From NCBI GenBank assembly GCA_030668825.1, contig DAOVET010000004.1, positions 296-64,295 of the forward strand: 64,000 nt of DNA, written 5' to 3'. A model generated the notes under the pieces. That model saw only the letters and a program-made list of their open reading frames with translations, had not been told where the DNA came from and did no database searches. The position numbers and the translations under genes are program-made. Every line of letters starts with the position of its first letter. Within the stretch, counting starts at the first letter, position 1. Positions 2-32,859 of the stretch are shown in pieces. Source of the DNA: Candidatus Heimdallarchaeota archaeon. Its GTDB lineage: Archaea; Asgardarchaeota; Heimdallarchaeia; Heimdallarchaeales; Heimdallarchaeaceae.

Positions 2-166
2 TACCATTATGATTTTGTTTTCCATCAAGAAACAATCAATCTAGCAATTGAAACTAACTTACCTAAAAGAATCCATTCAATAATAGCTAGACAGAAAGTA
101 TTGAGTGAAAGACCTAATATTGAAGAGATAATTGAAACTATTGAATATTTCAGAAGTGGAAGTTGA
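2..166 (+). CDS. 3' end of an upstream gene truncated by the window edge (hypothetical protein)
   Basis: Frame-2 ORF is open from the window edge to a TGA at 164-166. Its stop overlaps the TTG start of the next gene (TTGA), suggesting translational coupling. No recognisable domain in the 54 aa visible. Confidence 0.3.
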   Translation, partial: YHYDFVFHQETINLAIETNLPKRIHSIIARQKVLSERPNIEEIIETIEYFRSGS

Positions 167-1239
167 AGCAAGTGCTAATCAAACGAATCTTAATCATTAC
201 AGAACATGGTGTTCCTATCTTTGATTATGAAGAGTATGGAAGAGATGATGAAGTCTTAGTTTCAGGATTATTGACAGCAATCCTAAGATTCGTTGAGGAA
301 ATTGAAAAGGAAAAACTTTCAAGGCTTCTTCTCGAGGAAAGTCAGTTTCTTGTTATTTCCAAAGAATCTCTTATTTTCATTTTCCAGATTTCAGATGAGA
401 TGCCTAGTGATTATGCAGAATATGTAAGTAATTGTATGTTTGAAAAATTTGTGAAGGAGTATGGTGAGCAGATTAATTCTTTTAATGGAAACGTAAGCGT
501 TTTTCGTGAATTTCAAGATAGATGTAAGGAAATCCTCCTTGAATGTGGTGCAGATGTGGCTGATGTCTTAATTCATGATCAAGAAGGTCGAAATCTTCGA
601 GCTTGGTGTTTATTATCACTTGATTATGAACCACTTATTGTAAGAGCAAGTGCTCCAAACTATAATATTGATAGTTTTACCATTTTTCAGGTATTAGGTA
701 AAAGTGTGAAGAAGGTTACTTCTAAGTTAGCTAACTACTCTAAAGGAACTTGCTTCCACGTTACGCATAATGGAAATGTTATTCAAACAATTATTCTACC
801 TCACGCTATTATAATAACCGAATCATATGTAGAAGAGCTAAAAGCAAAAGGAATAAAACAATTTAAAACAAAAACAGCTCAGCAGTTGATTAAAATATTT
901 ACTAAAACATACACCCCAGATTCTATAGATGTTTATAGTAAAAACTTGGTTTCAACCACAACACAAAAAGAAATCCATGAAGATCAAAAGTTTATACTAG
1001 ATCTGTTCAAAGCAGCAGAAAAAGGATTTCAATACTTATTTGATTCCCCAACACATTTACAGATTCTAAACTATGATGAGAAAAGCTATATCTATGTTAA
1101 ATTAATTAATCGAACAATTATCATGGAATTTAACAGAACAGTTTCTGTGTCAACAATTATAGAACATACGAAGAAAGTGTTCGAAGAAGCGATAATTGTT
1201 AAGGACGATATCCCTGCAGCAGTGCTAGAAAGACAGTAG
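163..1239 (+). CDS. Soluble protein carrying the Roadblock/LC7-like module shared with the surface-receptor paralogs
   Basis: N-terminus 'ILIITEHGVPIFDYEE...VSGLLTAILRFVEEI...QFLVISKESLIFIFQISDE' aligns block-for-block with the cytoplasmic domains of ORFs 11744-15376, 15478-19062, 19170-22364 and with ORF 22473-23174. TTG or GTG start; no in-frame ATG until residue ~80. Confidence 0.6.
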   Translation: MKQVLIKRILIITEHGVPIFDYEEYGRDDEVLVSGLLTAILRFVEEIEKEKLSRLLLEESQFLVISKESLIFIFQISDEMPSDYAEYVSNCMFEKFVKEYGEQINSFNGNVSVFREFQDRCKEILLECGADVADVLIHDQEGRNLRAWCLLSLDYEPLIVRASAPNYNIDSFTIFQVLGKSVKKVTSKLANYSKGTCFHVTHNGNVIQTIILPHAIIITESYVEELKAKGIKQFKTKTAQQLIKIFTKTYTPDSIDVYSKNLVSTTTQKEIHEDQKFILDLFKAAEKGFQYLFDSPTHLQILNYDEKSYIYVKLINRTIIMEFNRTVSVSTIIEHTKKVFEEAIIVKDDIPAAVLERQ

Positions 1240-2431: not shown

Positions 2432-3001
2432 GTGAATAAAAATCTAAGAAAAAGTGATACACTTGCACACACAACAGGTTCTTTTATTAGCATTTTGAAG
2501 GATGTAAACAATGTTTGGGATGAAAAAACCCAGAAAATAATTTCCTTAAGCCCTGATGTGTTTAGAGATGTTAAAGAGGTCATTTCTTCAAAAGGCAAGA
2601 TCGTTACAAAAAAGGAAAAAATAATTGCAAACCTTACAACATTATGTAATCTTTACAATGAGATGGAGCAAGTCAGTGCAGAACGAGTTGATCTAATGAT
2701 TGAGATGGAAGGCTTAGACTTTCCCATTAAAACGCCCAAAAAATTGCTCGATTTATGCAAAAGGGATGTAGAAACGAATAAATTGTTGAAAACCATTGCT
2801 CATAACATCAGTAAGACAATGAATTTCATAGAACAAAATATAACATATGTTGAATTATTAGAAACCTCATTAAAATCATTTGAATCTGCTTTTACAGAAT
2901 ATAATGAAGTCATAGATATCAGTAGATTTCTAACTGCAAATCTAGAGAAAGAATTAGAAAAAGAGTTCAAAAAAGCACGCAAATATGGAGACATTGTCTA
3001 A
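2432..3001 (+). CDS. hypothetical protein
   Basis: 189-aa ORF with K/E-rich helical composition typical of this genome. No recognisable motif. Confidence 0.4.
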   Translation: MNKNLRKSDTLAHTTGSFISILKDVNNVWDEKTQKIISLSPDVFRDVKEVISSKGKIVTKKEKIIANLTTLCNLYNEMEQVSAERVDLMIEMEGLDFPIKTPKKLLDLCKRDVETNKLLKTIAHNISKTMNFIEQNITYVELLETSLKSFESAFTEYNEVIDISRFLTANLEKELEKEFKKARKYGDIV

Positions 3002-5613: not shown

Positions 5614-6534
5614 CTATTTTCGAATTTTTCTTGTTTTTCGAACTGCTCTTTCTTCTTCTTTTGCTTTCTTTTTAGCTCTTTTTTCTTCTGCAGTTCTAGC
5701 TCTCTCTCTTCGTTTTTCTCGTTCTTTCATTTGTTTATCTTTCTCTTTCTCTTGCTTTTGTTTCTCTTTGTCAGAGAGTTTCTTAACTTCCTTCTTTACA
5801 ATAGTTGGAATGGGTAAATCCTTTGTTTGAGCAGTAACTTTAGCAAAATACTTGAGAACTGTCATAGCAAATTTTGTGAGTACTAGGAGATCTGCAGGTT
5901 TTTTAGTCATGTTGAATTTTAGCTCGAAATGAGGTTCATCAGTTCGAACAGAAATCCACTGAATTTCCTTTGGATATTCTCCAAGAGCTTTCAGGAAAGT
6001 TTTGCTCCTTATCAATTGATTAATGGCTCTTACTCTATTGGACTTTATCAAGAATGAGTCATTAACTTTTTGTTCAGGAGAAGCTATATCGTCAATTTCT
6101 ACAAGATAATCAAAATCCTTTCGAATAGCTGATTTCATCTTATAAGGTATCACTTCGAATAATACTCTAGGTTTATCTGGAAAATTCGCTGCTAAACCGA
6201 ATGAATCTTTATTTCTAAAGAACAATCCATCTACTAGCATGGTTGGAAAAGAGGTTCTTGGTAATAAAATAATCCAAGCAGAAGTACTCGTTACAGCATA
6301 CTCTTCACCCATTTGGCACCTAATTTCTATTTGACGATCATTAGGGTCTTTTCTAGAATAATTCATAATATACGGATCTATTGCTGTAAGAACTTCATCT
6401 ATATAGAACTCTTTCTTCTTCTTATTGGCAAATTTACCCCAAACATAAAAACCAAGATATAATCCAATAAATATAAGTACGGGAAGAAGCATTACTAGAA
6501 TTGATCCAAAGTCGAATAAATCTGAATTAGTCAT
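5614..6534 (-). CDS. Membrane-anchored hypothetical protein with a Lys/Glu/Arg-rich C-terminal tail
   Basis: N-terminal TM helix 'ILVMLLPVLIFIGLYLGFYVW', a central globular region, and a C-terminal ~70 aa that is almost entirely K/E/R. The opposite-strand ORF 5548-5817 is a low-complexity shadow. Confidence 0.5.
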   Translation of the reverse strand: MTNSDLFDFGSILVMLLPVLIFIGLYLGFYVWGKFANKKKKEFYIDEVLTAIDPYIMNYSRKDPNDRQIEIRCQMGEEYAVTSTSAWIILLPRTSFPTMLVDGLFFRNKDSFGLAANFPDKPRVLFEVIPYKMKSAIRKDFDYLVEIDDIASPEQKVNDSFLIKSNRVRAINQLIRSKTFLKALGEYPKEIQWISVRTDEPHFELKFNMTKKPADLLVLTKFAMTVLKYFAKVTAQTKDLPIPTIVKKEVKKLSDKEKQKQEKEKDKQMKEREKRRERARTAEEKRAKKKAKEEERAVRKTRKIRK

Positions 6535-6596
6535 GATAATTACCGGTATTATTCTAACCCTTCAGAGAAGAACACCTATTTTAATTCTTGGTTTTG

Positions 6597-7160
6597 TTAT
6601 ATCTTCATCTTGTCGCTTTTTCTTCTGATAATGTCACGTCCCAAATCGATAAAAGCTTCATTAACATTTGTTCCTACAAGAGCACAAGTTGAATAGAAAT
6701 CAGTTAATTCAATGTGAGGATATTTATCTTTGAAATTATCTACAAAAGTCTTCGCTTGCTCGTTCCAAAAGTTATTTTGAGCTTCTTCCATCAAATCGTC
6801 TTTGTTACCTAATACTAATATTGGAATTTTTTCCTTGATAGATGAATTAAGTTCTTTTAACCATTTCTCCAGATTAGCAAACGTTTCAGGGCGACTCTTG
6901 TCAAAAACTAGTAAGCCCCCTTCAGAACCAAGATATTGTTTCTCTCTAAGTCTAGCAAATTCTTCCTGACCACCAAGATCCCAGATTTGAAACATTATCT
7001 CTATATCCTCGTCTATATGTTTGTGAGAGGCTAAATCCACTCCAAGAGTGCTCATATATGCTTCTTCAAGATGAAGTCCCATAAAACTCCTTTTTAAAGT
7101 GGTTTTTCCAGTAGCATAATCTCCTAGAAGTACAATTTTGACAGTTCCGTAAACAGACAT
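6597..7160 (-). CDS. Ras/Rab-like small GTPase
   Basis: G1 'LLGDYATGKTTL', G3 'WDLGGQEEF', G4 'LGNKDDL' and a G5-like 'YSTCALVG'. The ORF-track entry 6597-7622 is a stop-free run through the divergent promoter. The real start is the ATG at 7158-7160 ('MSVYGTVKIVLLG'), giving 187 aa. No C-terminal CAAX Cys. Confidence 0.85.
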   Translation of the reverse strand: MSVYGTVKIVLLGDYATGKTTLKRSFMGLHLEEAYMSTLGVDLASHKHIDEDIEIMFQIWDLGGQEEFARLREKQYLGSEGGLLVFDKSRPETFANLEKWLKELNSSIKEKIPILVLGNKDDLMEEAQNNFWNEQAKTFVDNFKDKYPHIELTDFYSTCALVGTNVNEAFIDLGRDIIRRKSDKMKI

Positions 7161-7274
7161 GACGGTTCTATTCCTAAATTGTATATTTATTAGGTTTTCT
7201 AATATTCCTTCTGTTTCACAAATGATGAGGTTAGATGAAAAGTTTAACAATATGTAATAAAATAACAAAGTTGT

Positions 7275-8285
7275 ATGCCTTTCACAGTAGTTTGCGGTGG
7301 TTTTTGGGGAGATGAAGGAAAAGGAAAACTCCTCTCCTATCTGGCCTTGAAAGATGATCTTGAAAGCGTTGTTCGTGCTGGTGTTGGAACAAATGCTGGT
7401 CATACAATCGAATTTGAGAATCGTGAATATAAACTTCGAATGGTTCCTTCTGGTTTTGTTAACCCTAAGGTAAGAATGCTCATTGGAGCTGGAGTGTTGG
7501 TAGATCCAAAGGTCTTGTTTAAAGAACTCAAGGAAACTAAGACTGAGGATAGAATGGGCGTTGATTATCAATGTGGTATAATTGAGCAAAAACACATAGA
7601 AATTGATTCTACTAATGCTCATCTAAAAGAAAAAATAGGCTCTACAGGCAGCGGAACAGGTCCTGCTAACATGGACCGAGCTATGCGTTCTCTCAAACTA
7701 GCACGAGACATCCCCGAGTTACAACCGTATCTAACCGATGTCAGTGTTGAAATAAATGATTCTTTAGATGAAGGAAAAAATGTTATGGCGGAGGGAAGCC
7801 AAGCTATTCTACTCTCATTATTCCATGGCTCATATCCCTATGTTACTTCAAAAGATACTTCTGCAGCCGCAATTTGCTCCGATGTTGGAGTAGGTCCTAC
7901 AAGAGTTGATGAAGTGATAGTTGTTATGAAAGCATTCCTTACTAGAGTTGGTGCTGGTGATTTGCCTGGTGAATTATCTGAAGAAGAAACTGTGAAACGT
8001 GGATGGACTGAATACGGAGCTGTTACTGGGAGATTAAGAAGAGCTGCTCCATTCAATTACGCTTTGGCTAAGAAATCAGTTAGACTAAATGGTGCTACTC
8101 AAATTGCTCTAACTAAACTTGACATTGTCTTTCCCGAGATAAAAAAATCAAATGATATTGGTCAGATTAAAGGGGATGTTGCTGAATTCGTTGATAAAAT
8201 AGAAGAAGCTACCAAAATCAAAGTAGCTATAATTGGTACTGGCCCTTCAGCTGAGGACATTATAGATTTAAGAAATTCCATCTAA
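7275..8285 (+). CDS. purA: Adenylosuccinate synthetase (short archaeal form)
   Basis: 'VVCGGFWGDEGKGK' P-loop of the AdSS family and 'GTNAGHT'. 336 aa, typical of archaeal PurA. Confidence 0.9.
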   Translation: MPFTVVCGGFWGDEGKGKLLSYLALKDDLESVVRAGVGTNAGHTIEFENREYKLRMVPSGFVNPKVRMLIGAGVLVDPKVLFKELKETKTEDRMGVDYQCGIIEQKHIEIDSTNAHLKEKIGSTGSGTGPANMDRAMRSLKLARDIPELQPYLTDVSVEINDSLDEGKNVMAEGSQAILLSLFHGSYPYVTSKDTSAAAICSDVGVGPTRVDEVIVVMKAFLTRVGAGDLPGELSEEETVKRGWTEYGAVTGRLRRAAPFNYALAKKSVRLNGATQIALTKLDIVFPEIKKSNDIGQIKGDVAEFVDKIEEATKIKVAIIGTGPSAEDIIDLRNSI

Positions 8286-11743: not shown

Positions 11744-14700
11744 TTAGAAACGAACTGTAGCAATTTTATATGCATCGAAAAAGGGAATTAAAATTCCATT
11801 TTCAATAAATTCAAAAATTATTGGGAGTCCTTTTTCAATCTTAACATCATCAAGTTCATCAAAGATTCGACTGATTGTCATATTATCTCCATCTGTAATA
11901 TATTCAATTAAACGCTTTTGTAAGCCATTCAATTCTTCAATCTCAGCTTGTTTATATGGAGATACTGTAAATGGATAGAAAATCCATAAATGAATCTCTT
12001 TCATGATTTTTTCAGTTATCCCTTGGAGGTTGATACGAAAGACTTCTGTTGAACCATCCCATTCTTCATTTATATTACTAAACATCTTAGCAAACCAATC
12101 ACTAATAACAGTTAGTTTTTCTTCTATTTCTTCATTTAAGTCTGTTTCTGAAAAAGTGTATAGTGTAAACTGACCAGATTCTGAACCAGCAACTAAGAAA
12201 TTTCTATATTGTAGTCTTTTAACTGATCCTGTTTTATCTCCTCGTAATTCAACTCCCATGGAGGCAATAGCTGTAAGGAAACCTGTAATTAGCGAAGGAT
12301 CCAAAGAGATTTCAGAACCCAGATCCATCTCATAAACAGGTAATCCTGTAGCACTATGAACAATTATCAATTTGGTAATAGATAAAACACTTTCATATAA
12401 ACCATATATTCGTGCAAAAAGTGCTTTTTCAGCTCTTCTATCCTTATCAAGCTTTCTTCTAATAAAGACTGTTAGAGGAGTAACCATTGCAACTAAAGCA
12501 AAAATTCCAATAATTACGAAAATATAAATTGGAATGCCTTCTTCTGGATTAATAATTGATATTGATTTGATTAGTTGATTAGATTTTGTTTCGTATCCTG
12601 TTTTATTTATTGTAACAAAGATGTTAATACTGGTTTCTTGAGGTTCGAATATTCTAAAAGTTACTGAATATAATCCTAGATTTTCAGTTTGTTGAATTAT
12701 CTCTGCATCTTCTGCTTGTAAATCCAGTGAGATATTAAAACTTGCCTCTGGAATATTTTCTGGATTAATGGTATCAACATAATAAAATGTGATTGTTGTT
12801 TCATTACCCCAATGAACTTCATCATCTGAAGATACAATATCTATAGTCGTGGGTGTAGTGAGAATTTCTAAATTGACAGTGGTTGTTGCATTTTCTTGTC
12901 CATAATTAACAATGAAATCTTGTTTTGAAACAGAAATTCTTATTGAATAAGAACCCGGTACTAAATCTCGTCCTTCTCTACCACTAAATAACTCTAATTG
13001 GATTAGACTTGTAACAGCAAATTCTGTCACAACATATTCTGTTGTTTTAATTAGCATTTCATCAAGATAGAAGGCTATTTCATCAGGAATCACAGGACTA
13101 CTGGAATTCGATGTATCTTCAACAGTGAATTGAACATAAGACTCTTGATCACTATAATAAGCTTCAAAATCCCCTCCAGCTGAAGGTGTAATTGTAAAAG
13201 TATGAAAAACACGCACGTCAAATGTGAATGTATGAGTTTCCAAATATATTCCAGTTGCCATAAGCGTAATTGAATAATTTCCAACCACTGCATTTATTAG
13301 AATATTTGTTTCATAGTATGGACCAATATAGCTAAAAAAGCCAGATGTTCCCCATGAAGTATTGTATGCAACTGGAGCTGCTTTTATTGGTGTTCCGTCT
13401 TCTGAATAGAATGGATCGCTAACATTATTATAATAGATTTTTGCTTTAACAGATTCTTGGTTAATTCTATCTATTGAGATAGAGGAATTAGTAAAATCAG
13501 AACTCCCCAAGGTTTCTTCCCAAAAGAAAGAAGCAGTGGTTGATTTACTGACTGAAATTCTTAAAGTGTAAAATCCTACTTCTGTTCCATTTTGCCACAA
13601 ACAAACTGCAGTCCAATCTCCCTCAATATCAGTTCCATTGATGGATGGATCAAAAACTGTATTAATGGAGTATTTTCCAGCACTAATTTGAGTAGTTTCC
13701 AAAACAGTATATGATGTTAAATCTGTGAAAATTATATTGGTGTAATCCGATTCATTTTTTATAGGTACAATAGCACCATTAGGATCATAAAGTGAGAAAT
13801 TAACACTTCCTGTCAAGACATCTTGCATGAAAGAATCTTTTATAAAAATGTCCACTAAGACAGTTGAACCATTATATCCAGTTGCATGAGTTCCATTAGC
13901 CTCCCAGTATCCTAAATTGTAAGAATTTGAATTCAGAGCAGAATCAAACAAATAATTCTGACTAGTGGTTGTAAAATTTAATGAAGCCCCTTGATAAGTA
14001 TCACTAACTAGAAGAGAAGACAAATCAAATGAATAACCTTGAGTATCTTTCCAGCCAGTCATTGGTAGTGATCCGTTTGCTATTAAGCTAAAATCTGAGT
14101 TACTCCAATCATCAGGCGTATAAATGACATGACTTCTATTGGGGTTGGAATAAGAAGAAAAATTAATTGAAGGAATATCCCACGAAAGATTCCAATCTAT
14201 TGAATATTCACTGTGGGATGAATTTGAAACACGGTAATTTGAAACAATATTTAGAGCAATATAGAAAATATAACTATTGTTAAATACTATTCTAACAGAT
14301 TCTGTGGATTCAAGATCATGAATCCCTGTTCCTAAAATTATTTGATTCAAAGATGTAATAGGATCTGAATTATCTTCTAATTCAATATCAGCTGGATTAG
14401 TGAAACTAAGAGGTTCTTGAAATTGATTTAAAGGTAAAAGCTTTGGAGCTAGAGTATAATCTACATTTACAGTACAGTTGTCCCAAGTAGGACCTGATGA
14501 ATCCCATCTATAAGATTCACCTAGAAATGGGGCGCCATTTTTTGATCTCCATGCAAAAGTTTGTGCAGGATCGGTTAAGTCTAAAGTAGATAGATTTGCT
14601 ACAATAAAATATTTTCCCTTATCCAGAATAACATCATCAAAATCATAATAAGTAAGATCAGATGCTGCTGCTGATGGAACAGGATTAGAATTAGTAAAAG

Positions 14701-15376
14701 AGTTATCTGTACAGTTAGATAATATTTTGCTAGAATTTGTTACATCTGGAAAAACAGCACCCTCATCTTTTATAAGAAACAAGTCCAGCTCTACTGTACC
14801 CAGTGATCCAGAACCTATGATATCCAGATAAATATCAGTTCCATAAAATTCTGCATAGTCCCAAGAGATAGTAAACCCTTGAGCTATTGCTAAATATTGA
14901 TCATGGGCTAGTTCGTCATACCCACTTTGAGTAGCTTCAACAACAAAATATTCAGGTATTGATTCTATTTTCTCAATACCATACGCTAGTTGATTAGAGT
15001 ATCCTGCTATATCATCGATTGAAAATTGATTAGAACTCAAGGAAGAATAGGTAGGTTTTGTCAAATTTAGTTCAAATGAATGATAAAGGCCAAGATCATC
15101 GTTTATTGTAAAATCATCACCTGTACCTATATGGTCATCTACTGGTATATATGAGAGATGTGGGAACTTTAAATACTCTCCATTGTTTAGATTGATATTT
15201 GTTGTGAAACTTGAATCTTGTAGCGTATTAGAGTTTAAAGAAAAGTCTGTTGCTTCATAGTAATTTATCCCATAAGAAGCAAGAGCTGGTGATATAAGAA
15301 AAATATACATTAATAGCATACATAGTAATTTATTTTTTATTATTTTATTAGCCATCTGACCAAAAACCCCTTTCAA
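11744..15376 (-). CDS. Giant single-pass surface protein (receptor-like paralog 3): signal peptide, N-glyco-rich ectodomain, TM, cytoplasmic Roadblock-like module
   Basis: 1210 aa. Signal peptide 'LLCMLLMYIFLISPALASYG'. The ectodomain is Asn/Ser/Thr/Tyr-rich with dozens of N-x-S/T sequons. TM 'IPIYIFVIIGIFALVAMVTPLTVFI' is followed by 'RRKLDKDRR' (positive-inside). The cytoplasmic ~230 aa ('ITKLIIVHSATGLPVYEMDLGSE...ITGFLTAIASMG...FTLYTFSE') ends in 'YKIATVRF'. Probable ATG start at M8. Confidence 0.8.
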   Translation of the reverse strand: MKGVFGQMANKIIKNKLLCMLLMYIFLISPALASYGINYYEATDFSLNSNTLQDSSFTTNINLNNGEYLKFPHLSYIPVDDHIGTGDDFTINDDLGLYHSFELNLTKPTYSSLSSNQFSIDDIAGYSNQLAYGIEKIESIPEYFVVEATQSGYDELAHDQYLAIAQGFTISWDYAEFYGTDIYLDIIGSGSLGTVELDLFLIKDEGAVFPDVTNSSKILSNCTDNSFTNSNPVPSAAASDLTYYDFDDVILDKGKYFIVANLSTLDLTDPAQTFAWRSKNGAPFLGESYRWDSSGPTWDNCTVNVDYTLAPKLLPLNQFQEPLSFTNPADIELEDNSDPITSLNQIILGTGIHDLESTESVRIVFNNSYIFYIALNIVSNYRVSNSSHSEYSIDWNLSWDIPSINFSSYSNPNRSHVIYTPDDWSNSDFSLIANGSLPMTGWKDTQGYSFDLSSLLVSDTYQGASLNFTTTSQNYLFDSALNSNSYNLGYWEANGTHATGYNGSTVLVDIFIKDSFMQDVLTGSVNFSLYDPNGAIVPIKNESDYTNIIFTDLTSYTVLETTQISAGKYSINTVFDPSINGTDIEGDWTAVCLWQNGTEVGFYTLRISVSKSTTASFFWEETLGSSDFTNSSISIDRINQESVKAKIYYNNVSDPFYSEDGTPIKAAPVAYNTSWGTSGFFSYIGPYYETNILINAVVGNYSITLMATGIYLETHTFTFDVRVFHTFTITPSAGGDFEAYYSDQESYVQFTVEDTSNSSSPVIPDEIAFYLDEMLIKTTEYVVTEFAVTSLIQLELFSGREGRDLVPGSYSIRISVSKQDFIVNYGQENATTTVNLEILTTPTTIDIVSSDDEVHWGNETTITFYYVDTINPENIPEASFNISLDLQAEDAEIIQQTENLGLYSVTFRIFEPQETSINIFVTINKTGYETKSNQLIKSISIINPEEGIPIYIFVIIGIFALVAMVTPLTVFIRRKLDKDRRAEKALFARIYGLYESVLSITKLIIVHSATGLPVYEMDLGSEISLDPSLITGFLTAIASMGVELRGDKTGSVKRLQYRNFLVAGSESGQFTLYTFSETDLNEEIEEKLTVISDWFAKMFSNINEEWDGSTEVFRINLQGITEKIMKEIHLWIFYPFTVSPYKQAEIEELNGLQKRLIEYITDGDNMTISRIFDELDDVKIEKGLPIIFEFIENGILIPFFDAYKIATVRF

Positions 15377-15477
15377 CTTTATGTTCTGTTCCTTTTGAAA
15401 TGATTACTAGATTATTACTTATAAATTATTAGTTAATATTGGTAAGCTTTTTGATAAAAAATGAGGTTATGAGAAGC

Positions 15478-18400
15478 TCAGAATCGAACAGTAGCGATTT
15501 TGTAGGCATCAAATTCAGGTTCTAGGATGTTAGTTTCAATTAAATCAAAAATTATTGGTAATCCTTGTTCCAATTTAACATCATCAAAATCTTCAAAAAG
15601 ACGACTTATTGTTATAGTGTCACTTTTACCTATATAATCAATCATTCGTTTCCTTATTCCTGACATTTCTTCAATTTCTTTGTTCTTATAGGGTGAAACT
15701 CTGAATGGATAGAATATCCAGAGATGAATCTCTTTCATGATTTTCTCTGTTATTCCTTTAAGGTTTAATCTAAACGGCTCAGTTGAACCATCCCAATCAG
15801 CATCTATTTGTGGAAACATCATGTCAAACCAATCACTAATTACTGTAAGTTTCTGCTCTATTTCTTCATTTAATTCAGACTCTGAAAATGTATAAAGAGT
15901 AAAAAAACCAGATTGTGATGCTGTTACTTGGAATTCTTTGTATTGTACTCTTCTTACACCACCAGATCGTTCTCCTCTCATTTCACTTCCTACTGATGAA
16001 ACAGCTGAAAGGAATCCTGAAATTAATGAGGGGTCTACATCAATCTCTGATCCAAGATCCATTTCATAAACAGGTAAACTTGTCGCTCTGTGAACTATAA
16101 TCAGCTTTGTTATTGATAGTACCCCTTCATAGAAATTGTAAGTTCTTGTGAAAATATCTTTTTGAGCTCTTTTTTCTCGGTTTTTTCTTCGTCTTAATAG
16201 TAAAATCGATGGTGCAATCACAGCTCCTGCGCCAAGAACACCGATTATGATAAAGAGATAAAAAGGCATTTTGGAATCTGGATCAGTTGGAATATTAATC
16301 TGAATGGAAGCAAGTCTAAAATTATCAATTGATTCATAATTTGATACTGAAATTGAAACGAAAACATTCAATGAAGCAACTGTTGGTTGCAGTATTTTTA
16401 CAATTACAGTGTAAACTCCTGCTGATTCAGAGTCTAACCATACTTCTACACCTTCAATATCTACGCTAAGTTCGATTTCAGACTCAGTGAGTCCTGTAAC
16501 CTTTGTAGAATGATCAGTATCCATAACACTGAATTTGAGTTCTGATTGAGTATTAGTATCCATTTCATCTATATCTTGTTCGATAACAATAGCTATTTTG
16601 ATTGGGATAATTTCCAATTGTGGGAACGACAAAGAAGCGCTGTTCTGCCCCATTTCATCAAAGAAATTTGTTTTTGTAACTATAACTTCTATACTGTGAC
16701 TTCCAACCTCAAGACCTAATGATTGTGTATCTAGCTCTATCTCCATTATTCCATCCAAAAGTGAAAGATTGAATTCTTCACTAGTCAAGTTAACGGCATT
16801 AAGTATAACAGTTATTTCCTCAGGATATAGCTGAACACTCATATTTGAGATGTCAATTAATTCAAAACTAATAGCTGTAGGATCTGTATAAGTAATTTGA
16901 CCTGGACTTTGAATCATATTAATCCTAAATATGTGGACAATTTTTACTGGAAATTGCAATGTGTGGTTTTGTAGAAATTGACCATTTGCGAATAATTGAA
17001 CATTCGAGGATCCTTCTGGTGCATTCGTTAATATTTCTGTATCATATGAAGAAGTATTGAAGTTTATTGAACCTGAATCAAACCAACTTGTAGAATATGA
17101 GACTAAAGCAGCTGTTATAGGTGTTCCATTTCCTACAAAAAATGGGTCACTAATATTATAGTAATTCACTCTAATCCTTATACTCTCGCCGCTAATACGA
17201 TTTATTTCTGTACTTGGATTATTAATCCAGATATCACTATCTACTTGTTCTTCCCATTCAAATTCAGCAAATGTAGGTTTTACTACAGTAATCGTTCTAG
17301 CATAGAAGCCTACAGCAGTACCATTAGTCCATTCAGAGGTAACTGTCCAATGGCCTTCAGTGTCGCTTCCATAAACAGAGGGATCAAACGAAGTACTAGC
17401 TGAGTACACTCCAGGACTGGACTGAGAGGATATAATTTGAGAATAGCTAGTTGTATCTACAAATGAGATATTTGAATCAAGATTTGTTTTCATAACTATT
17501 ATTTCACCATCTGGAGAATAAAGTGTAAAGTTTAATTGACCAGTGATGATATCAGAAAGCAAATCTTCCTTAACTGATATCACAGCATCTAAATCAGACC
17601 CGTAATAACCTATAGCATGAGTTGTATTAGTTGTCCAGTACCCTAAATTGAATGTTTCAGAGGATATACTTGAATCATAAAGGTAATTCCTACTAGTTGA
17701 ATAGAATACAAAATCACTTTCGTAATAATTACTGCCATGAAGCAGAACATCTAAATCTAGCGTATGAATATTAATATCTACAGAACTTACAATTGGAATA
17801 GAGTCATTAATTAAGAAAATCTGACTGAGGTTATTCCATCCGTTGGGAATAGTTATCGATTGTAATCGAATTGGATTGGTGTATTGATATATATCAACTA
17901 AAGGAGTAAACCAATTGATACTCCAAGAAATACTGTAATCATAAAAAGAAGAATTGATAGCTGTATAAAATGACTGACCCATAAAAGATCTACTATAAGT
18001 ATATGGATTGTTCATTTCTATATCAACTGAAGTGTTTGAAGTTATTGTATGAATTCCAACTCCACTTATCACTTGGTTAAAAGAGGTTATATCTACTCCA
18101 TCATCTCTCAATTGTACTTCAGCTGGATCCGAGAATCTCATTGCTGTACCATTTGCATATGCAGGAGTTAACTCTGGAGCTAAGACATAATCCTTATTGA
18201 CTAATGAAGACCATACTGAACCATCGTGAGTATACGAATCTGCATAAACTGATCCTTGTTGGCCTCTCCAATTGAAACCATCTCCATCGGTTGCATCATA
18301 GCTAGAAGCATTAGCTACTACATAGTATTTACCTGTTGAAAGAGTTATATCATTAAAATCGTAATAAACCGTATTTCCTGATGTACTTTCATTAATTGGA

Positions 18401-19062
18401 TTCAATACGGTATAAGGTCCATTCGTTGCACTACTCAAGATGGATGACATATCTGGTTTTCCATCGGAGATATTTGCATTGACTATGAATAAATCTAATT
18501 CATCACCGCCAATAGCATTTTCAATGATAAGATAAATTTTAGCACCAGAAAAAATAGCAGTTGGCCATGTTACATCAAAACTCTGAGCTATTCTTATAGT
18601 TGATGAATCAAGAATCTCATCTTTATTCTGAATTGTCTGTTGATAGTCGAAGTACTTGCTTGCAGAAATAGCTGTTATATTATATTGAAGCGAATCTGTG
18701 GTATAATCTGTAATACTAGAAATTGTGTAAGTATCTGAATAACTATTATCTGTATTAAGTGATACATTCACTCCTTGATTAACTTGCAGGTTATCTGAAA
18801 TAATAAAATCATCACCACTCCCATCGGAGTTTGTAATGGGTATGTATGAATATTTCAGTGATTGTTCTAGATTTGGACCTTCCAAACTATTTAGGAACCC
18901 ATTCTGAGAATGAATTAAGTCATCTTCAATGTTTTTGCTATGGTTATTAATTGAAAAAAATCCATTTGAAATACTATTTGATGTGAAAGGTAAAACGGGG
19001 ATGATTATAAAAGCTATGAAGGTTAATGATAAGAGCTTTCTAAATCTGAAATAATTTAACAA
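15478..19062 (-). CDS. Giant single-pass surface protein (receptor-like paralog 2)
   Basis: 1194 aa with the same architecture. Shares conserved ectodomain blocks with its neighbours ('GYWTTNTTHAIGYYGS', 'NFTLYSPDGEI', 'FDPSVYGSDTEGHWT...WTNGTAVGFY'). TM 'FYLFIIIGVLGAGAVIAPSILLL' + 'RRRKNREKR'. Cytoplasmic module ends in the identical 'YKIATVRF'. Confidence 0.8.
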   Translation of the reverse strand: MLNYFRFRKLLSLTFIAFIIIPVLPFTSNSISNGFFSINNHSKNIEDDLIHSQNGFLNSLEGPNLEQSLKYSYIPITNSDGSGDDFIISDNLQVNQGVNVSLNTDNSYSDTYTISSITDYTTDSLQYNITAISASKYFDYQQTIQNKDEILDSSTIRIAQSFDVTWPTAIFSGAKIYLIIENAIGGDELDLFIVNANISDGKPDMSSILSSATNGPYTVLNPINESTSGNTVYYDFNDITLSTGKYYVVANASSYDATDGDGFNWRGQQGSVYADSYTHDGSVWSSLVNKDYVLAPELTPAYANGTAMRFSDPAEVQLRDDGVDITSFNQVISGVGIHTITSNTSVDIEMNNPYTYSRSFMGQSFYTAINSSFYDYSISWSINWFTPLVDIYQYTNPIRLQSITIPNGWNNLSQIFLINDSIPIVSSVDINIHTLDLDVLLHGSNYYESDFVFYSTSRNYLYDSSISSETFNLGYWTTNTTHAIGYYGSDLDAVISVKEDLLSDIITGQLNFTLYSPDGEIIVMKTNLDSNISFVDTTSYSQIISSQSSPGVYSASTSFDPSVYGSDTEGHWTVTSEWTNGTAVGFYARTITVVKPTFAEFEWEEQVDSDIWINNPSTEINRISGESIRIRVNYYNISDPFFVGNGTPITAALVSYSTSWFDSGSINFNTSSYDTEILTNAPEGSSNVQLFANGQFLQNHTLQFPVKIVHIFRINMIQSPGQITYTDPTAISFELIDISNMSVQLYPEEITVILNAVNLTSEEFNLSLLDGIMEIELDTQSLGLEVGSHSIEVIVTKTNFFDEMGQNSASLSFPQLEIIPIKIAIVIEQDIDEMDTNTQSELKFSVMDTDHSTKVTGLTESEIELSVDIEGVEVWLDSESAGVYTVIVKILQPTVASLNVFVSISVSNYESIDNFRLASIQINIPTDPDSKMPFYLFIIIGVLGAGAVIAPSILLLRRRKNREKRAQKDIFTRTYNFYEGVLSITKLIIVHRATSLPVYEMDLGSEIDVDPSLISGFLSAVSSVGSEMRGERSGGVRRVQYKEFQVTASQSGFFTLYTFSESELNEEIEQKLTVISDWFDMMFPQIDADWDGSTEPFRLNLKGITEKIMKEIHLWIFYPFRVSPYKNKEIEEMSGIRKRMIDYIGKSDTITISRLFEDFDDVKLEQGLPIIFDLIETNILEPEFDAYKIATVRF

Positions 19063-19169
19063 TAGCTTACATCTCTGTTATTCTAACAGACTAATAATAT
19101 CTTCTAACTTAAATTATTTTTCTATTTTACAGTGATTTTCAGCTGAATTTATGTCTGTTAAGGGATTTT

Positions 19170-22100
19170 CTATCCTTTGAATGAAGAGAATTGATTTCGG
19201 AGCAGTATTCCTTTATTGACTAGTCTGAATATAGATGTAAGATTATCTTCCATTTCATAATCGCTGAATTTCTTAAGTAAGACACTGATAGATGTTTCTT
19301 CTTTTTTCTTGACAAATTCTGCAATTCTTTGATCATGTTTCTCCAGTTTTTTTATTTCACCTGATTTTTGTTTGTTAAATTTGAGAGGGAAGTAAATCCA
19401 TAGATAAAGAGATTCTGAAACCTTATCTTCAATGAGTTTCTTCTTAGAACCGAACACTTCTTTCTTTCCATCCCACACTTTTCCTTTGGTTTTGAAACTA
19501 TATTCAAACCACATTATCAAGTCAAACAACCTTACTTGAAATTCCTTTATGACTTCATTTGAAGAGAAGAGAAAAACTGTATAGGTTTCTGAACTAGCGC
19601 CTGTAACAACAAAATTCCTATATTCGAGTCGTTTAATTTCTCCAGTATCACTACCTCCAAGGGTTTTGCCCATGGTTTCGATAGCACCCAGAAAACCTAA
19701 TACAAGAGCGGTTTCTATTGCATGTTCACTTCCTATATCTAACTCAAATACAGGTAAGCTAGTTTCAGAATGAATAAATAATATTTTTCGCATAGAAAGA
19801 ACACTATCTAGCAACCCTACTACTTTAGCTTTACTCTGCACATCTACAATTGGAGCTTTGGATTTCCTGGATCTTGGAATTGCTATTACAGCTATTAAAA
19901 GAGTTATTAGGAGAATACCCCCAACAACTATGATAATTATGAGATAAGGGGGAAGTTGTTCAGTTGTTTTGACTTTAACTGTGTACTCAAAACTACTCTG
20001 TTCATCAACATATCCAGCTCTGAAGTTTGCTTTAGAAACAGTCACGTTTACTTTGTGTGTTCCTGAGGTTTGCATACTCATTGTTAATACAACCCAATCT
20101 CCATCGATAGTCTGCTCGTAAAAACCTTCAGCTATAAGTACATCATTGATATAGACACTGACATCATCAGGATAAATGACACTCTGCAATGGATCTGTCA
20201 TATTCAATAATTTGAACCTTAGAACTGCTTCATCAGTAGAATTAATCTCAATAGAATCCTGATCTACAACTAATGAGAACAAGTTGAAAACTTCTAGATT
20301 TAGTTGTATCTTCCTGGATTTGCACTGCGAGCTAGAAGCTTCCAAAGTTATTGTATGAAAACCCGCATCAATATCTATTGGAACTGTTGAATTGAAAAAT
20401 ATTCCATTCTCACTAAAATTACTAGAAAGACCCCAACTTGTAGTATAAGAAACAGTTGCATTTACTAATGCTTGCCCCATACTACCAAAGAAAGGTTCAC
20501 TTATAGAGTAGAAATCTGAGCGAGCTCTTAACGAATCACTGTTCATCCTTAAGATTGTATTTGAGGTAATATAGGTCCATACATCACTATTTGGAAGTGT
20601 TTCCCAAGAAGGATTGAAAACTATCTCAGTTTCAACAAATATTTTTTTAGCAAATAAACCAGCTTGAGTACCATTGGTCCAATAAACAAAAGCTGTCCAT
20701 TCACCGGTCATATCAGATCCATATACAGATGGATCAAAAGTTAAGTTTGAGGTGTATAATCCCGAACCACTAGAGAATATTCCATTCTTTGTATACGAAG
20801 AAATATCAATATACGAGAGGTTTGAGGGAAGAGCTATCTTTTGAGGTAAAATATTTCCATTTGGATCAAACAAAGTTACATTTATACTTCCAGTATCCTC
20901 ATTATTCTGAATATTAATCTCGAAATTCACTGTTGAACCTTCATTTCCATATGCATCGATAGTATCAGTAGTCCAGTATCCTAAAGAGAAGATATCTGCT
21001 GGTCCGGAATCATCTGAAAGAATCAGTTGTTGAACATAATTAAGACTCGTAGTTTCTAATCTAAATGTTCCTGCAGAAATATTAAATCCATAATTAACTA
21101 AATATCCATCAATCGTTTTCTGAGAGCTAAGGATATCAGTATCATTATAATAACAAGTAGAACTATCAGACCAGTCAGTAGGAGTGAATATTAAACTGGA
21201 TCTTTCCATACTAGGGTAGGGAGAATAATCAGCTTCTGAAGTTGACCATTGTAATGTCCATATATTAGAGTAAATACCAGATGTTGAATTGATTGCTGTA
21301 AAAGAAGTATCAACTGTCACATCTTTTGAAAAAGAATAAGAATTATTGAACACTAACTCCACTGAAGTATCACAGCTAAGCAAATGAAAACCAGTAGTAG
21401 AAATTGGAGATGTGGTTGTTAGAACATCTGAAGAATTATCTTGCAAAGCTATTTGGTTTAAATCACTAAAAGTCACTGCTGTTCCATTATCATAACTTGG
21501 AAGAAGTTGAGGAATAAAGGTATGATCTACCAATTTGAGGTTCCAAACACCAGAATTGTCCAAATAATACGTATCACTGTCTAGTGGTGCAGTACTATAA
21601 CTATACCAACGGAAATTCCATGGACTTCCAGCAACTGTCAGATTTGCAACTACAAAATATTTTCCGTTTTCTAAAACTATATCTGTGAAATCATAGAATG
21701 GGAGATTATCAATAGTACTAAAAGGAAAAGGATTAGCATTTGTATATGGACCATGAACATCACTGGAATAGATATAGGACATATTTGGTTTACCTGTTAG
21801 TTCATCAGCTTTTACAAGAAACAGCTCCAACTCTGTTGTACCAACATTCCCATCATCATCAAAAAAAAGTTTAGCACCTGAAAACACTGCATAATCCCAA
21901 TTTATATCGAAACTTTGAGCTATAGCCCATCTAGAAAAAGTATCACCTATCTCTATTGGTGTATCTCCTTCAATTTCTATTGGATACAAATCAGTTTTTG
22001 CAGTGATGCTTGAAATATTATAATTAAGTCTAAAAGGGTCATAACCTGTGATTGTATCAATCGTATAATTATCTTCAAATTGCTCACTTGTTACATTGTA

Positions 22101-22364
22101 AGAAAGGTTAAGAGTTTGATAGTCATTTACAGTTAGAACATCTTTCCCTGATAAACTACTTCCTACTCCAGATACATTAGTGATTGGAGTGTAAAGAAGT
22201 TCAGTTTCAGAAATAGAGATAGGATTATATTGTTCTAAAGTTATAATATCATTTTTCTCTTGAGAGTCTGATTTAGAAACAAGTTGTTCTTGATAAATTG
22301 ATAAACTAAGCACTATAAGAAACACAACAGAATAAATTTTGACTTTATGCGCTACTCTTTGCAT
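19170..22364 (-). CDS. Giant single-pass surface protein (receptor-like paralog 1)
   Basis: 1064 aa. Signal peptide; the ectodomain has the same conserved blocks ('GYWTTDTIDAYGNEGS', 'NVTLFDPNGNI', 'FDPSVYGSDMTGEWT...WTNGTQAGLF'). TM 'LIIIIVVGGILLITLLIAVIAI' + 'PRSRKSK'. Cytoplasmic module 'KILFIHSETSLPVFELDIGSE...LGFLGAIETMG...YTVFLFSSNE'. Confidence 0.8.
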   Translation of the reverse strand: MQRVAHKVKIYSVVFLIVLSLSIYQEQLVSKSDSQEKNDIITLEQYNPISISETELLYTPITNVSGVGSSLSGKDVLTVNDYQTLNLSYNVTSEQFEDNYTIDTITGYDPFRLNYNISSITAKTDLYPIEIEGDTPIEIGDTFSRWAIAQSFDINWDYAVFSGAKLFFDDDGNVGTTELELFLVKADELTGKPNMSYIYSSDVHGPYTNANPFPFSTIDNLPFYDFTDIVLENGKYFVVANLTVAGSPWNFRWYSYSTAPLDSDTYYLDNSGVWNLKLVDHTFIPQLLPSYDNGTAVTFSDLNQIALQDNSSDVLTTTSPISTTGFHLLSCDTSVELVFNNSYSFSKDVTVDTSFTAINSTSGIYSNIWTLQWSTSEADYSPYPSMERSSLIFTPTDWSDSSTCYYNDTDILSSQKTIDGYLVNYGFNISAGTFRLETTSLNYVQQLILSDDSGPADIFSLGYWTTDTIDAYGNEGSTVNFEINIQNNEDTGSINVTLFDPNGNILPQKIALPSNLSYIDISSYTKNGIFSSGSGLYTSNLTFDPSVYGSDMTGEWTAFVYWTNGTQAGLFAKKIFVETEIVFNPSWETLPNSDVWTYITSNTILRMNSDSLRARSDFYSISEPFFGSMGQALVNATVSYTTSWGLSSNFSENGIFFNSTVPIDIDAGFHTITLEASSSQCKSRKIQLNLEVFNLFSLVVDQDSIEINSTDEAVLRFKLLNMTDPLQSVIYPDDVSVYINDVLIAEGFYEQTIDGDWVVLTMSMQTSGTHKVNVTVSKANFRAGYVDEQSSFEYTVKVKTTEQLPPYLIIIIVVGGILLITLLIAVIAIPRSRKSKAPIVDVQSKAKVVGLLDSVLSMRKILFIHSETSLPVFELDIGSEHAIETALVLGFLGAIETMGKTLGGSDTGEIKRLEYRNFVVTGASSETYTVFLFSSNEVIKEFQVRLFDLIMWFEYSFKTKGKVWDGKKEVFGSKKKLIEDKVSESLYLWIYFPLKFNKQKSGEIKKLEKHDQRIAEFVKKKEETSISVLLKKFSDYEMEDNLTSIFRLVNKGILLRNQFSSFKG

Positions 22365-22472
22365 GTAAGAAACCCCACATTTAATGACCTATATTCAATA
22401 TTTGAAAGTTAATTTATTATTTATATCTATGTAAAGTAGCAATTAAACGATTTTTATTTGTACTTCTAAAGT

Positions 22473-23174
22473 TCATACTTTATTTCTATCAAGTTCGAAA
22501 AATGTTTGAGTATACTGATCAGATATACTGGTTATAACAAATTCTTTCTCAACAAGTTTGAATATTATCCCTAATGCTTCATTTACTGGATATTTCTTCA
22601 AATCGTCTAATAATCTCATTATTGAGGTTTGCTTATTTTCTGCAAAATGTGTTAATATATCTCTTAATATCATACTCTCGCTTTCGATTTCTGCAAGCTT
22701 GCGAATATCTATTTCGAGTGGGTAGAGCAACCACAGATGGAACAGATTAGTTATTTTGTCCATTATACTTATTTTGTAATAATCAGAAAATTCTTCGGAA
22801 TACTCTCCTTCTGAACTATCAAAACCAAAAACTAAATCAAACCATTTTACTAATTCTACGATACTTTTTTCGAGATCACTCTGCAAATCTCGTTCAATGA
22901 ATAGATAAGCTGTGTATGGCCCATAACTTGTAGTTAAAACAATGAAACCATAATACTTTATTTTTGTTATATCAGCTGTTGAACTGATTTTCTCAACTTG
23001 AGTAGAATCTTGTGTCTGTAAAACATCGCAGATAAGAGAAGGGTCAAGGTTAACCTGGCTATTTAAGTCCATTTCAAAAACTGGTAAACACTGTTCATGT
23101 TGAACTACAAGTAATTTTCTTACCATGAAAACATCTTGAAGTATTATTTCGTAGTTCAACACCAGCTCTACCAC
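22473..23174 (-). CDS. Standalone soluble copy of the receptor cytoplasmic (Roadblock-like) module
   Basis: 233 aa. 'KLLVVQHEQCLPVFEMDLNSQ...DPSLICDVL...YTAYLFIERD...LWLLYPLEID' is collinear with the cytoplasmic domains of the three giant proteins and with ORF 163-1239. Confidence 0.7.
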   Translation of the reverse strand: MVELVLNYEIILQDVFMVRKLLVVQHEQCLPVFEMDLNSQVNLDPSLICDVLQTQDSTQVEKISSTADITKIKYYGFIVLTTSYGPYTAYLFIERDLQSDLEKSIVELVKWFDLVFGFDSSEGEYSEEFSDYYKISIMDKITNLFHLWLLYPLEIDIRKLAEIESESMILRDILTHFAENKQTSIMRLLDDLKKYPVNEALGIIFKLVEKEFVITSISDQYTQTFFELDRNKV

Positions 23175-28395: not shown

Positions 28396-29079
28396 ATGAA
28401 TGTATTTCATATTGTAGGAAATGAACTTATTCCAATCAAGGAACCCTATCAGTTTCAAAATGGTGATGTTTATGTTATTGAAACAGAAAGCAATCTCTGG
28501 ATATGGTTAGGTTCCAAGTCTTTTGCAGATGAGAAGTTTATTGGTTCTTGGGGAGCAAAGAAGATTGAAAACCAAAATAAAGAACTGAAAATTGAAACTA
28601 TCAATCAAGGTTTAGAACCTTCAGTTTTTAAGGAACAGGTTGATTTTGAAGTTGTTGAAGGAGATACTCTGGGTTTTCTGAAATCAATTGATACAAAATA
28701 TGAGAAAGATTTCAAATTACTTCAAATTAAGGAGAATGATGAAGGAGAGATAATTGTTTCAGAACTGCCTGTTGAACACAAACACTTTCAATCCGATGAT
28801 GCTTTTGTCCTAGATGCTTTTAACATTCTTTATGTTTGGATAGGTAAAGATAGTCAAGTTAAAGAGAAATATGAAGCTGGTAGAATTACTAGACAGTTAG
28901 AAGTAGAGAGAAAAAGAGCTCCAATCATTTATGTGATTGAAGAAGAAAATGAACCAGATGGTTTTCGTGAGCTTATCTTTAAATTGGGATTAAGGGACGG
29001 AATTCTGGAATTAAGAAAGACAGTTAAAAAAGTAGAAGGATCTACATCCAAAAAATGGTGGCAGTTCTGGAAAAGGTGA
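28396..29079 (+). CDS. Two-domain gelsolin/villin-like protein (Asgard 2DGel type)
   Basis: Two gelsolin-repeat signatures: 'GDVYVIETESNLWIWLGSKSFADEKFIGSWGAKKI' and 'DDAFVLDAFNILYVWIGKDSQVKEKYEAGRITRQLE'. Compare eukaryotic gelsolin 'DxFILDxGxxIFVWxGKxASxxEK'. Confidence 0.72.
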   Translation: MNVFHIVGNELIPIKEPYQFQNGDVYVIETESNLWIWLGSKSFADEKFIGSWGAKKIENQNKELKIETINQGLEPSVFKEQVDFEVVEGDTLGFLKSIDTKYEKDFKLLQIKENDEGEIIVSELPVEHKHFQSDDAFVLDAFNILYVWIGKDSQVKEKYEAGRITRQLEVERKRAPIIYVIEEENEPDGFRELIFKLGLRDGILELRKTVKKVEGSTSKKWWQFWKR

Positions 29080-30972: not shown

Positions 30973-31085
30973 TGTATACTCCTCAAGTATTACTCTGCTT
31001 CTAGTATGAAAAAATAATGATTGTTTGAAAAATAAATGGAGGGAGAAAGAGAAATTCTTTCTTAGATGTTGATTACTTCTTCCAT

Positions 31086-31445: not shown

Positions 31446-31688
31446 TCCTTGTTAATTACAATTTATGCATATTGCATTGGACTGTTAAAAAACTATGCTT
31501 TTCGGTATAAAAAGCATTTTATTTAGGTTGTTGAAGAAAGCAACAGTAATATAAATAAGGAAAAAGAGGATATATATCTTGATTGATAACTAGAGGAATT
31601 CAGAACTGTTAAAAGACAGACTTGGAGTTTTAGAATTTCTTGAAAACAGATCCTTAGAAGAAAGGCAAAGTATGGATTTGACTTACAA

Positions 31689-32156: not shown

Positions 32157-32200
32157 AATGAAAATAATCTTCTCTATACCTAATTAATTTCTAGAACAAT

Positions 32201-32794: not shown

Positions 32795-32859
32795 CTTTCC
32801 TTCTATTTTCCAACTTGTTTATATTTATTCAGTTATTAAACAATTGGCTACTCGAATTA

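Follow-up and report, generated by a model that had tools for sequence, protein, structure and literature searches.

A Rab-like small GTPase of Heimdallarchaeaceae and the CCDC47-like membrane protein encoded next to it

In eukaryotes, CCDC47 (about 480 amino acids) is a subunit of the PAT complex of the endoplasmic reticulum (ER) multipass translocon. Small GTPases amount to about 2% of the genes in Asgard archaea (Eme et al. 2023), and one Asgard Rab-like GTPase has been crystallised (Thor-Rab, PDB 7EZB; Tran et al. 2024, PMC10933270). In Thor-Rab, residue R37, like R53 of MglA, is proposed to be an intrinsic arginine finger, and Asgard Rab-like proteins are generally without a C-terminal cysteine (Tran et al. 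2024, PMC10933270). The known substrates of guanine nucleotide exchange factors (GEFs) built of three longin domains need a Y-K/R motif in switch I (as Y37-K38 in Ypt7; PMC12383261). Here, we describe a window of 64,000 nucleotides from a Candidatus Heimdallarchaeota archaeon (assembly GCA_030668825.1, contig DAOVET010000004.1, positions 296 to 64,295), in which a gene for a Rab-like small GTPase (6597..7160, minus strand) is followed on the same strand by a gene for a single-pass membrane protein (5614..6534, minus strand) that appears to be related to CCDC47. That the first gene encodes a single-domain, cytosolic, Rab-like switch GTPase is virtually certain. That this switch works together with the CCDC47-like protein on the inner side of the membrane is a tentative reading, to which we give a little less than an even chance.

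The GTPase has 187 amino acids and matches Pfam Ras (PF00071) with E = 3.7e-33 (114.8 bits), ahead of Pfam Roc (7.4e-25), NCBIfam small_GTP (2.2e-19) and Pfam Arf (4.1e-13, 49.6 bits). The five motifs of the G-domain are complete: G1 GDYATGKT at residues 13–20, G2 with T38, G3 WDLGGQE at 60–66 (with the catalytic Q65), G4 NKDD at 119–122, and G5 TCA at 158–160. In an alignment of 22 sequences, the invariant or nearly invariant segments are MS[VIA][FY]G, GD.A.GKT, T38, DLGGQ, NK.D, and (S/T)CA. A preliminary description of this DNA had named a Ras-superfamily GTPase with complete G1, G3 and G4 motifs and with the G3 glutamine present; both statements are borne out by the orthologs, in which G1 to G5 and Q65 are kept.

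The open reading frame (ORF) called mechanically on this strand is longer (6597..7622, 341 amino acids), and the gene corresponds to its final 187 codons. The stop-free extension (7161..7622, 462 nucleotides) is non-coding on the minus strand. Positions 7161–7274 are the intergenic region between the GTPase gene and its divergent neighbour purA (adenylosuccinate synthetase, 7275..8285, plus strand; Adenylsucc_synt at 9.2e-82), and positions 7275–7622 lie antisense to purA; the window is AT-rich, with a G+C content of 32.8%. Because about 40 orthologs, collected by database search, have 187 amino acids and open with MS[VIA][FY]G, the ATG at 7158–7160 is the real start, in agreement with the earlier remark that the ORF track is over-long. 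The misleading 341-residue frame is the sole point in favour of an open frame that arose by chance or of a pseudogene in decay, and the match to Ras, the 40 or more orthologs of equal length and the invariant catalytic motifs make that explanation practically inconceivable.

The database search returned 48 homologs, of which about 40 are full-length, with 187 amino acids and about 52–96% identity. All of them come from Heimdallarchaeota metagenome-assembled genomes or metagenomes, and those that carry a name in their source are called "GTP-binding protein" or "Rab family GTPase" of Heimdallarchaeota or Heimdallarchaeaceae. Within the reach of the searches, the ortholog group appears to be restricted to Heimdallarchaeaceae. 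Among PDB sequences, the closest match is "Thorarchaeota Rab" 7EZB (E = 6.5e-26), followed by Rab11, Rab1, Ypt51, Rab2, Rab5, Rab7 and others; the best 60 matches are all Rab or Rab-related, one of them a RAS and EF-hand domain protein. The Rab affinity is judged by this ranking of similarities. By eye, in the PDB alignments, the Rab family (RabF) motifs F1 (LGVDL), F2 (FQIWDLGGQE) and F5 (LVFDKS) resemble those of Rabs, whereas F3 (EFARLR) and F4 (YLGSE) are divergent. The gene is an ordinary member of the known large expansion of small GTPases in Asgard archaea.

Two other assignments were considered and ruled out. An MglA-type GTPase, already dismissed in the preliminary description together with a translation-factor GTPase, would not have the Rab-type best matches, and here a serine, S37, occupies the arginine position and no neighbouring gene carries Robl_LC7; for the translation factors, the match to GTP_EFTU (2.3e-4) stays under the cut-off of that model. 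An SR-beta protein, which is Arf-type and anchored by a transmembrane helix, does not fit with the Ras score against the Arf score given above, nor with the lack of any SRPRB match.

The C-terminus of the GTPase reads ...RRKSDKMKI, with the pattern KS(D/E)xM(K/L/V)I in the orthologs, and neither the window protein nor any aligned ortholog has a tail cysteine that could form a geranylgeranylation motif. Residue S37 stands where Thor-Rab has R37 and MglA has R53. With neither a lipidation cysteine nor an intrinsic arginine, the GTPase should cycle slowly when alone and should need partners. It would then rely on other proteins for attachment to the membrane as well as for the action of a GTPase-activating protein (GAP) and a GEF. 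The likeliest partner would be the CCDC47-like membrane protein, encoded 62 nucleotides downstream: the GTP-bound form would dock on the cytosolic domain of that protein, on the inner side of the cell membrane and possibly, as with CCDC47 in eukaryotes, where the ribosome meets the Sec translocon.

The CCDC47-like protein has 306 amino acids: an N-terminal transmembrane helix is followed by a beta-rich domain in the cytosol (about residues 40–250) and by a long C-terminal helix rich in Lys and Glu. A basic stretch after the transmembrane helix indicates an N-out/C-in topology. The helix rich in Lys and Glu would be expected to bind rRNA, like that of CCDC47. The relation to CCDC47 is suggested by the Pfam family PF07946 (DUF1682; gathering score 27.7 bits), carried according to precomputed matches by 17 of 32 homologs, some of which NCBI names "DUF1682". 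The ortholog in locus L004 reaches 33.6 bits over profile positions 8–315 of 326. A profile search with the core of the protein, covering 1.84 billion representatives, gave 25 relatives of 159–302 amino acids; several of them lie at or near the gathering score, with P0120 (29.7 bits) and P0122 (29.1 bits) above it, and at least one cluster, P0130, includes members named Jordarchaeaceae. The AlphaFold2 model (mean predicted local distance difference test, pLDDT, 80.6) has as its top Foldseek match in the PDB chain 4 of 7TM3, a ribosome–multipass translocon structure (E = 6.2e-10, probability 1.0, TM-score 0.53, 319 columns). From its size and the concordance with Pfam, we take this chain to be CCDC47. 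Since the reciprocal sequence searches failed, the proposed homology draws on the Pfam family and on the fold. In the searchable literature, such an archaeal relative seems unreported for Asgard archaea: a literature search found no paper tying CCDC47 to Asgard or Heimdall archaea, and the term is absent from the accessible part of the supplements of Eme et al. (2023).

The set of loci for comparison was drawn from three GTPase orthologs traced to their contigs and from one scan of species-representative genomes. The scan used the CCDC47-like family as query and returned 25 loci, all from Heimdallarchaeota, including the closed genomes of Candidatus Heimdallarchaeum aukensis and Candidatus H. 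endolithica; all window proteins were mapped on these loci by tblastn. The GTPase gene lies directly upstream of the CCDC47-like gene, on the same strand, in all 23 of these loci that have usable upstream DNA, with a gap of 53–150 nucleotides in the 17 loci measured. The two uninformative loci either start inside the CCDC47-like gene (L027) or start with an insertion sequence of the TnpB type (L011). In the latter, a TnpB/OrfB-like protein of 533 amino acids (L011, 121–1722), with Zn-finger and RuvC-like motifs visible by eye in its C-terminal part, is encoded where the contig starts, immediately ahead of the CCDC47-like gene, and this is the one locus in which the GTPase gene is not seen in that place.

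The junction between the two genes stays intact where the surroundings change: with an insertion of about 1 kb upstream (L012–L018; a Lactamase_B gene is confirmed in L004), with an insertion of about 2 kb downstream (L028 and L029), and with the loss of DegV and the inversion of YjeF (L026). In other Asgard lineages, a different arrangement is found. Directly upstream of the CCDC47-like gene, four of seven distant loci have a gene for a KaiC-like/DUF835 protein of about 220 amino acids (L032, 1932–2588; L036, 3193–3873; L037, 3205–3873; L040, 4226–4891). Those of L032, L036 and L037 are 31–36% identical to each other, and YjeF is convergent downstream of the CCDC47-like gene in L037 and L040. 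A hidden Markov model (HMM) of these three proteins detects no KaiC-like gene in the Heimdallarchaeaceae loci and does not match the 211-residue upstream protein of L030. It is suggestive, not proof, of a functional slot that in Heimdallarchaeaceae the GTPase fills a position held elsewhere by another P-loop-fold protein; the GTPase would fill the role that the KaiC-like ATPase-fold protein has beside the CCDC47-like gene in those lineages. Rab-like GTPase genes do occur near two of the distant loci, 2.4 kb upstream in L036 (35% identical) and 1 kb downstream in L033 (33% identical), a nearness that is about that of chance.

Two further observations concern these distant neighbourhoods. Giant genes (more than 3100 amino acids) resembling type-I polyketide synthases lie near the CCDC47-like gene in L033 (1–5844) and L035 (6636–8759), probably on Asgard contigs. 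The gene p189 (189 amino acids, coiled-coil by eye; 2432–3001, plus strand, in the window) adjoins YjeF in the loci of Heimdallarchaeaceae as well as in L037 (7011–7580) and L038, and a homolog lies beside the CCDC47-like gene in L033 (6932–7492), for which reason the neighbourhood looks old.

Several observations weigh against a partnership of the GTPase with the CCDC47-like protein, and a functional tie of the GTPase to any neighbour is unproven. As to the identity of the membrane protein, the copy in the window reaches only 12.8 bits with PF07946, below the gathering score; sequence profile searches that start from the archaeal family find no CCDC47 in the PDB; and none of the relatives among the 1.84 billion representatives exceeds 302 amino acids. 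As to the pairing, no fusion of the two proteins occurs among the 25 representative clusters, the GTPase gene is not adjacent in any of the seven distant loci and eukaryotic CCDC47 is not known to have a GTPase partner. The 62-nucleotide spacer, like those of the 17 loci inspected directly, adds to these points. A conserved element, AAGAATTAAAATAGG (6575..6589, minus strand), similar to a B recognition element and TATA box (BRE/TATA), is kept in about 13 of the 17 loci, some 45–50 nucleotides ahead of the CCDC47-like ATG, and is probably, as judged from its sequence and position, the promoter of that gene. Runs of at least five T follow the GTPase stop in five of the 17 loci (L001, L020, L026, L028, and L029), and L004 and L028/L029 also have a T-run nearer to the CCDC47-like ATG. 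With such an element and such T-runs, each of the two genes may have a transcript of its own.

Moreover, the pair belongs to a block of about 17 kb that is collinear family-wide, with the order permease-AN1-Usp-purA / GTPase-CCDC47-like-DegV / YjeF-p189 / CitG / tri-longin, so that the adjacency of the two genes carries limited information. The same facts speak for an alternative in which no neighbour is a partner: the GTPase would act elsewhere (in the cytoskeleton, in membrane remodelling, or in signalling), and the arrangement would be frozen synteny within one archaeal family. The block, present in all loci, is mostly housekeeping (permease, AN1, Usp, purA, DegV, YjeF, CitG), the CCDC47-like gene has an independent promoter-like element, and in other lineages a GTPase gene adjoins neither this gene nor the tri-longin gene. 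Yet the GTPase/CCDC47-like junction is the one that stays unbroken through three different local rearrangements, and in other lineages the slot is taken by a different protein of the P-loop fold. An absence of any partner among the neighbours is, on balance, only a little less likely than action with the CCDC47-like protein, which is the reading that we retain.

The preliminary description had placed the GTPase in another circuit, with a receptor and a Roadblock protein. The gene does sit, as was said, between a gene at 163..1239 (plus strand, 358 amino acids) and an array of surface-protein genes (11744..23174, minus strand), and it is the only small GTPase gene in the 64 kb (about 55 genes). 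The product of 163..1239 had been called a soluble Roadblock-like protein. A fold of the type that regulates GTPases is indeed encoded there, but it consists of three longin domains and not of a Roadblock domain. No Pfam match is found for the whole protein at normal thresholds, and neither this protein nor the receptor tails match Robl_LC7 (PF03259), even at E up to 10. The N-terminal part alone has a weak match, below the cut-off, to Fuz_longin_1 (E = 0.011), the first longin domain of FUZ, MON1 and HPS1. The AlphaFold2 model, built from an alignment of 25 homologs (pLDDT 84, predicted TM-score 0.83), has three successive beta-beta-alpha-beta-beta-beta-alpha units (longin domains LD1 to LD3), and LD1 begins with a strand, unlike the N-terminal helix of the Roadblock topology.

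With Foldseek against the PDB, the best 19 matches of this model are all subunits of tri-longin RabGEFs (E from 1e-9 to 3e-5): BLOC-3 (1.3e-9), MON1A-CCZ1 (4.3e-9), Mon1-Ccz1-Bulli/RMC1 (about 6e-9), Fuzzy-Inturned (4.5e-8), and CPLANE (2.7e-7). These matches have probabilities of at least 0.99 over 370–465 columns and global TM-scores of 0.2–0.3, the low scores being expected since the domain orientations differ. The dynein Roadblock chain comes at rank 43 (E = 8e-4). A plain Roadblock identity is ruled out by the three longin units, the absence of Robl_LC7, and the RabGEF fold matches. Sequence searches of the PDB with the family profile and with single members gave no meaningful matches. 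The 163..1239 product is predicted from its model to fold like the subunits of eukaryotic tri-longin RabGEFs, and a role as GEF is a possibility. A second tri-longin paralog was not found in the window or in the loci searched. "Mon1" domains are already among the Asgard eukaryotic signature proteins in the supplement of Eme et al. (2023), and a literature search found no paper joining "tri-longin" with "Asgard".

The array consists of three genes for large surface proteins (11744–15376, 15478–19062, and 19170–22364, minus strand), each with a cytoplasmic module of about 230 amino acids, and of a tail-only paralog with the same module (22473–23174, minus strand). The module combines an N-terminal part that is LD1-like with a C-terminal part resembling a winged helix (match to Z-alpha at E = 0.59 only). 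On a receptor tail, that segment might be a fold that binds DNA or RNA. BLASTP between the 358-residue protein and the tail-only paralog gives nothing significant, and the full-length comparison of the two family profiles gives a probability of 14%. With hhalign, LD1 and the N-terminal domain of the tails align at 77.6% (E = 1.9e-5), over 36 columns only, which span the first two strands, the G-x-P turn and the beginning of helix 1. LD2 and LD3 have no sequence match to the tails or to each other, and a PDB sequence search with the tail family profile gave no meaningful matches. The receptor tails may, thus, share LD1 alone with the tri-longin protein, and weakly so. Surface-protein tails that carry a Mon1-type first longin domain are nevertheless an item of interest.

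On such grounds, the tri-longin protein could be the GEF (or the GAP) of the GTPase, alone or paired through LD1 with the receptor tails, and inputs from outside the cell would then switch the GTPase. The three-longin fold with its RabGEF matches and the Fuz_longin_1 hit point in this direction, as do the LD1/tail alignment with its G-x-P turn and the position of the GTPase as the sole small GTPase of the window. In addition, Asgard GTPases are commonly fused to a longin or Roadblock domain (26 of the 74 GTPases of MKD1; PMC10933270). The tri-longin gene is also found 5–7 kb from the GTPase gene in 19 of the 20 loci that reach far enough; in the exception, L024, the GTPase/CCDC47-like pair is kept without the tri-longin block. 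To that extent, the expected linkage is kept in related genomes, but what is kept is the whole housekeeping block, and the receptor-tail genes do not follow: they occur within the 10-kb flank in seven of the 25 loci and, from our own reading of coordinates, are absent from about ten loci with several kb beyond the permease gene.

Between the GTPase gene and the tri-longin gene lie four unrelated genes on both strands, and the constant companion of the tri-longin gene is another one. A gene for a protein of 292 amino acids with weak matches to the GIFT domain of IFT52 (its 3′ end at 2..163, plus strand) directly precedes it, as it does in all 22 loci that have both; in L003 and L004 a gene for a transmembrane/TPR protein comes further upstream. 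The tri-longin gene is, thus, the last of a conserved operon-like row (in L003, 16982–17860 and 17918–18982). In L038, whose tri-longin homolog is the most distant of those found (35% identity), the row TPR / GIFT-like / tri-longin / CitG / p189 / YjeF / DegV is intact, and neither a GTPase gene nor a CCDC47-like gene is present in the approximately 2 kb of contig past DegV. Switch I of the GTPase (Y35-M36) reads Y-M or Y-L in 18 of 18 aligned orthologs (Y-M/L-S-T), and the Y-K/R motif of the substrates of Mon1-Ccz1, Fuzzy-Inturned and BLOC-3 is absent from all of them. Finally, at the Asgard density of small GTPases, one per about 55 genes is the background, and nearness to any gene family is unremarkable.

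The operon partner, the intervening genes, L038, the scarcity of receptors and the Y-M/L switch I together remove the argument from linkage. With the background density of GTPases added to them, the coupling of a receptor, a Roadblock-type protein and the GTPase through conserved linkage, as first proposed, is not sustained. Regulation by the longin protein is possible, but the poor full-length similarity of the soluble protein and the tails is a further point against their joint action, and the exchange-factor (or GAP) explanation as a whole is unlikely. As regulators of the GTPase, the longin-fold proteins nearby (the tri-longin protein and the tails of the receptors) would be secondary candidates, not singled out by the evidence; the CCDC47-like protein, although tentatively, stays the first candidate partner.

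The two proposals could in principle be combined into a primitive membrane-anchored Rab module. The LD1-like tails and LD1 of the tri-longin protein would form a composite exchange factor, with a mechanism unlike that of the eukaryotic Y-K/R type, and would load the GTPase, which at the ribosome/Sec translocon would then bind to the CCDC47-like protein. We consider this very improbable. If true, it would couple outside signals to membrane-protein biogenesis, and tri-longin RabGEF signalling and the PAT complex would both have an archaeal forerunner in the module.

Elsewhere in the window, a cluster on the minus strand (29722–35268) encodes a eukaryote-like ubiquitin system, with a ThiF-type E1 (29722–30972), a transmembrane protein that ends in a Cys-rich, RING-like segment and has no Pfam match (32860–33963), a JAB/MPN deubiquitinase (33985–34704), and an E2 of the UQ_con family (34738–35268). 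A gelsolin-domain protein with two repeats (28396–29079, plus strand; Pfam Gelsolin, 2e-19) belongs to the cytoskeletal signature proteins of Asgard archaea. The gene for the beta-type subunit of a thiamine pyrophosphate (TPP)-dependent enzyme (59824–61908, minus strand) is split by an intein (Intein_splicing, 3e-15) with a LAGLIDADG homing-endonuclease domain (LAGLIDADG_3, 5e-6). An N6-adenine DNA methyltransferase of the Eco57I/MmeI type with a TaqI-like specificity domain (54190–56004, minus strand) may be a restriction-modification protein of type IIG/IIL.

By itself, the GTPase adds little to what is known, given the abundance of Rab-like GTPases in Asgard genomes and the structure already available for one of them. 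Its neighbourhood is of more interest, with a relative of CCDC47, a compact three-longin protein, and longin-tailed surface proteins. If any of these neighbours binds the GTPase, the locus would offer a tractable prokaryotic model either for pre-eukaryotic Rab regulation or for GTPase-controlled insertion of membrane proteins.

The closest described relative of the GTPase is Thor-Rab. Both are single G-domains with full G1 to G5, Rab-type switches and no C-terminal prenylation cysteine. At about 35–40% identity they differ in switch I, where Thor-Rab has K36-R37 (the Y-K motif and the possible arginine finger) and the window protein has M36-S37, and the window GTPase has, in addition, an insert of about 10 residues between G4 and G5 and the conserved KSDxMKI end. 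The eukaryotic Rab1, Rab11 and Rab7 share with it the fold and the sequence of the G-domain (E about 1e-20 to 1e-23) and the RabF-like segments; the window protein differs by having neither a hypervariable tail nor a geranylgeranylation cysteine, and by its divergent RabF3 and RabF4. With the MglA/MglB pair, there is a general logic in common, a small GTPase under a regulator of the Roadblock/longin superfamily. However, the window GTPase has a canonical DxxGQ and Rab-type matches, the nearby domains are of the longin type, and no MglB-type Roadblock gene adjoins it (Robl_LC7 is absent among the neighbours in Pfam searches).

The signal recognition particle receptor (SR) offers an analogy only. 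In SR-beta/SR-alpha, a small GTPase is docked on the longin-like SRX domain at the translocon, which is comparable to a small GTPase with a membrane-anchored partner at the ribosome–translocon junction; the window GTPase is without a transmembrane anchor and scores as Ras/Rab rather than as Arf/SRPRB. The product of 163..1239 shares with the Mon1/Ccz1, Fuzzy/Inturned and HPS RabGEFs three consecutive longin domains, the best full-length fold matches and the G-x-P signature of a Mon1/Fuz-type LD1. It is smaller than the Mon1/Ccz1-type RabGEFs, and the neighbouring GTPase is without their Y-K/R substrate motif. Finally, the archaeal CCDC47-like protein is shorter than eukaryotic CCDC47 (about 300 vs. 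about 480 amino acids) and has no luminal acidic N-terminal domain, whereas the rest of the layout is the same in both, with a transmembrane helix, a beta-rich domain in the cytosol, and a long charged helix.

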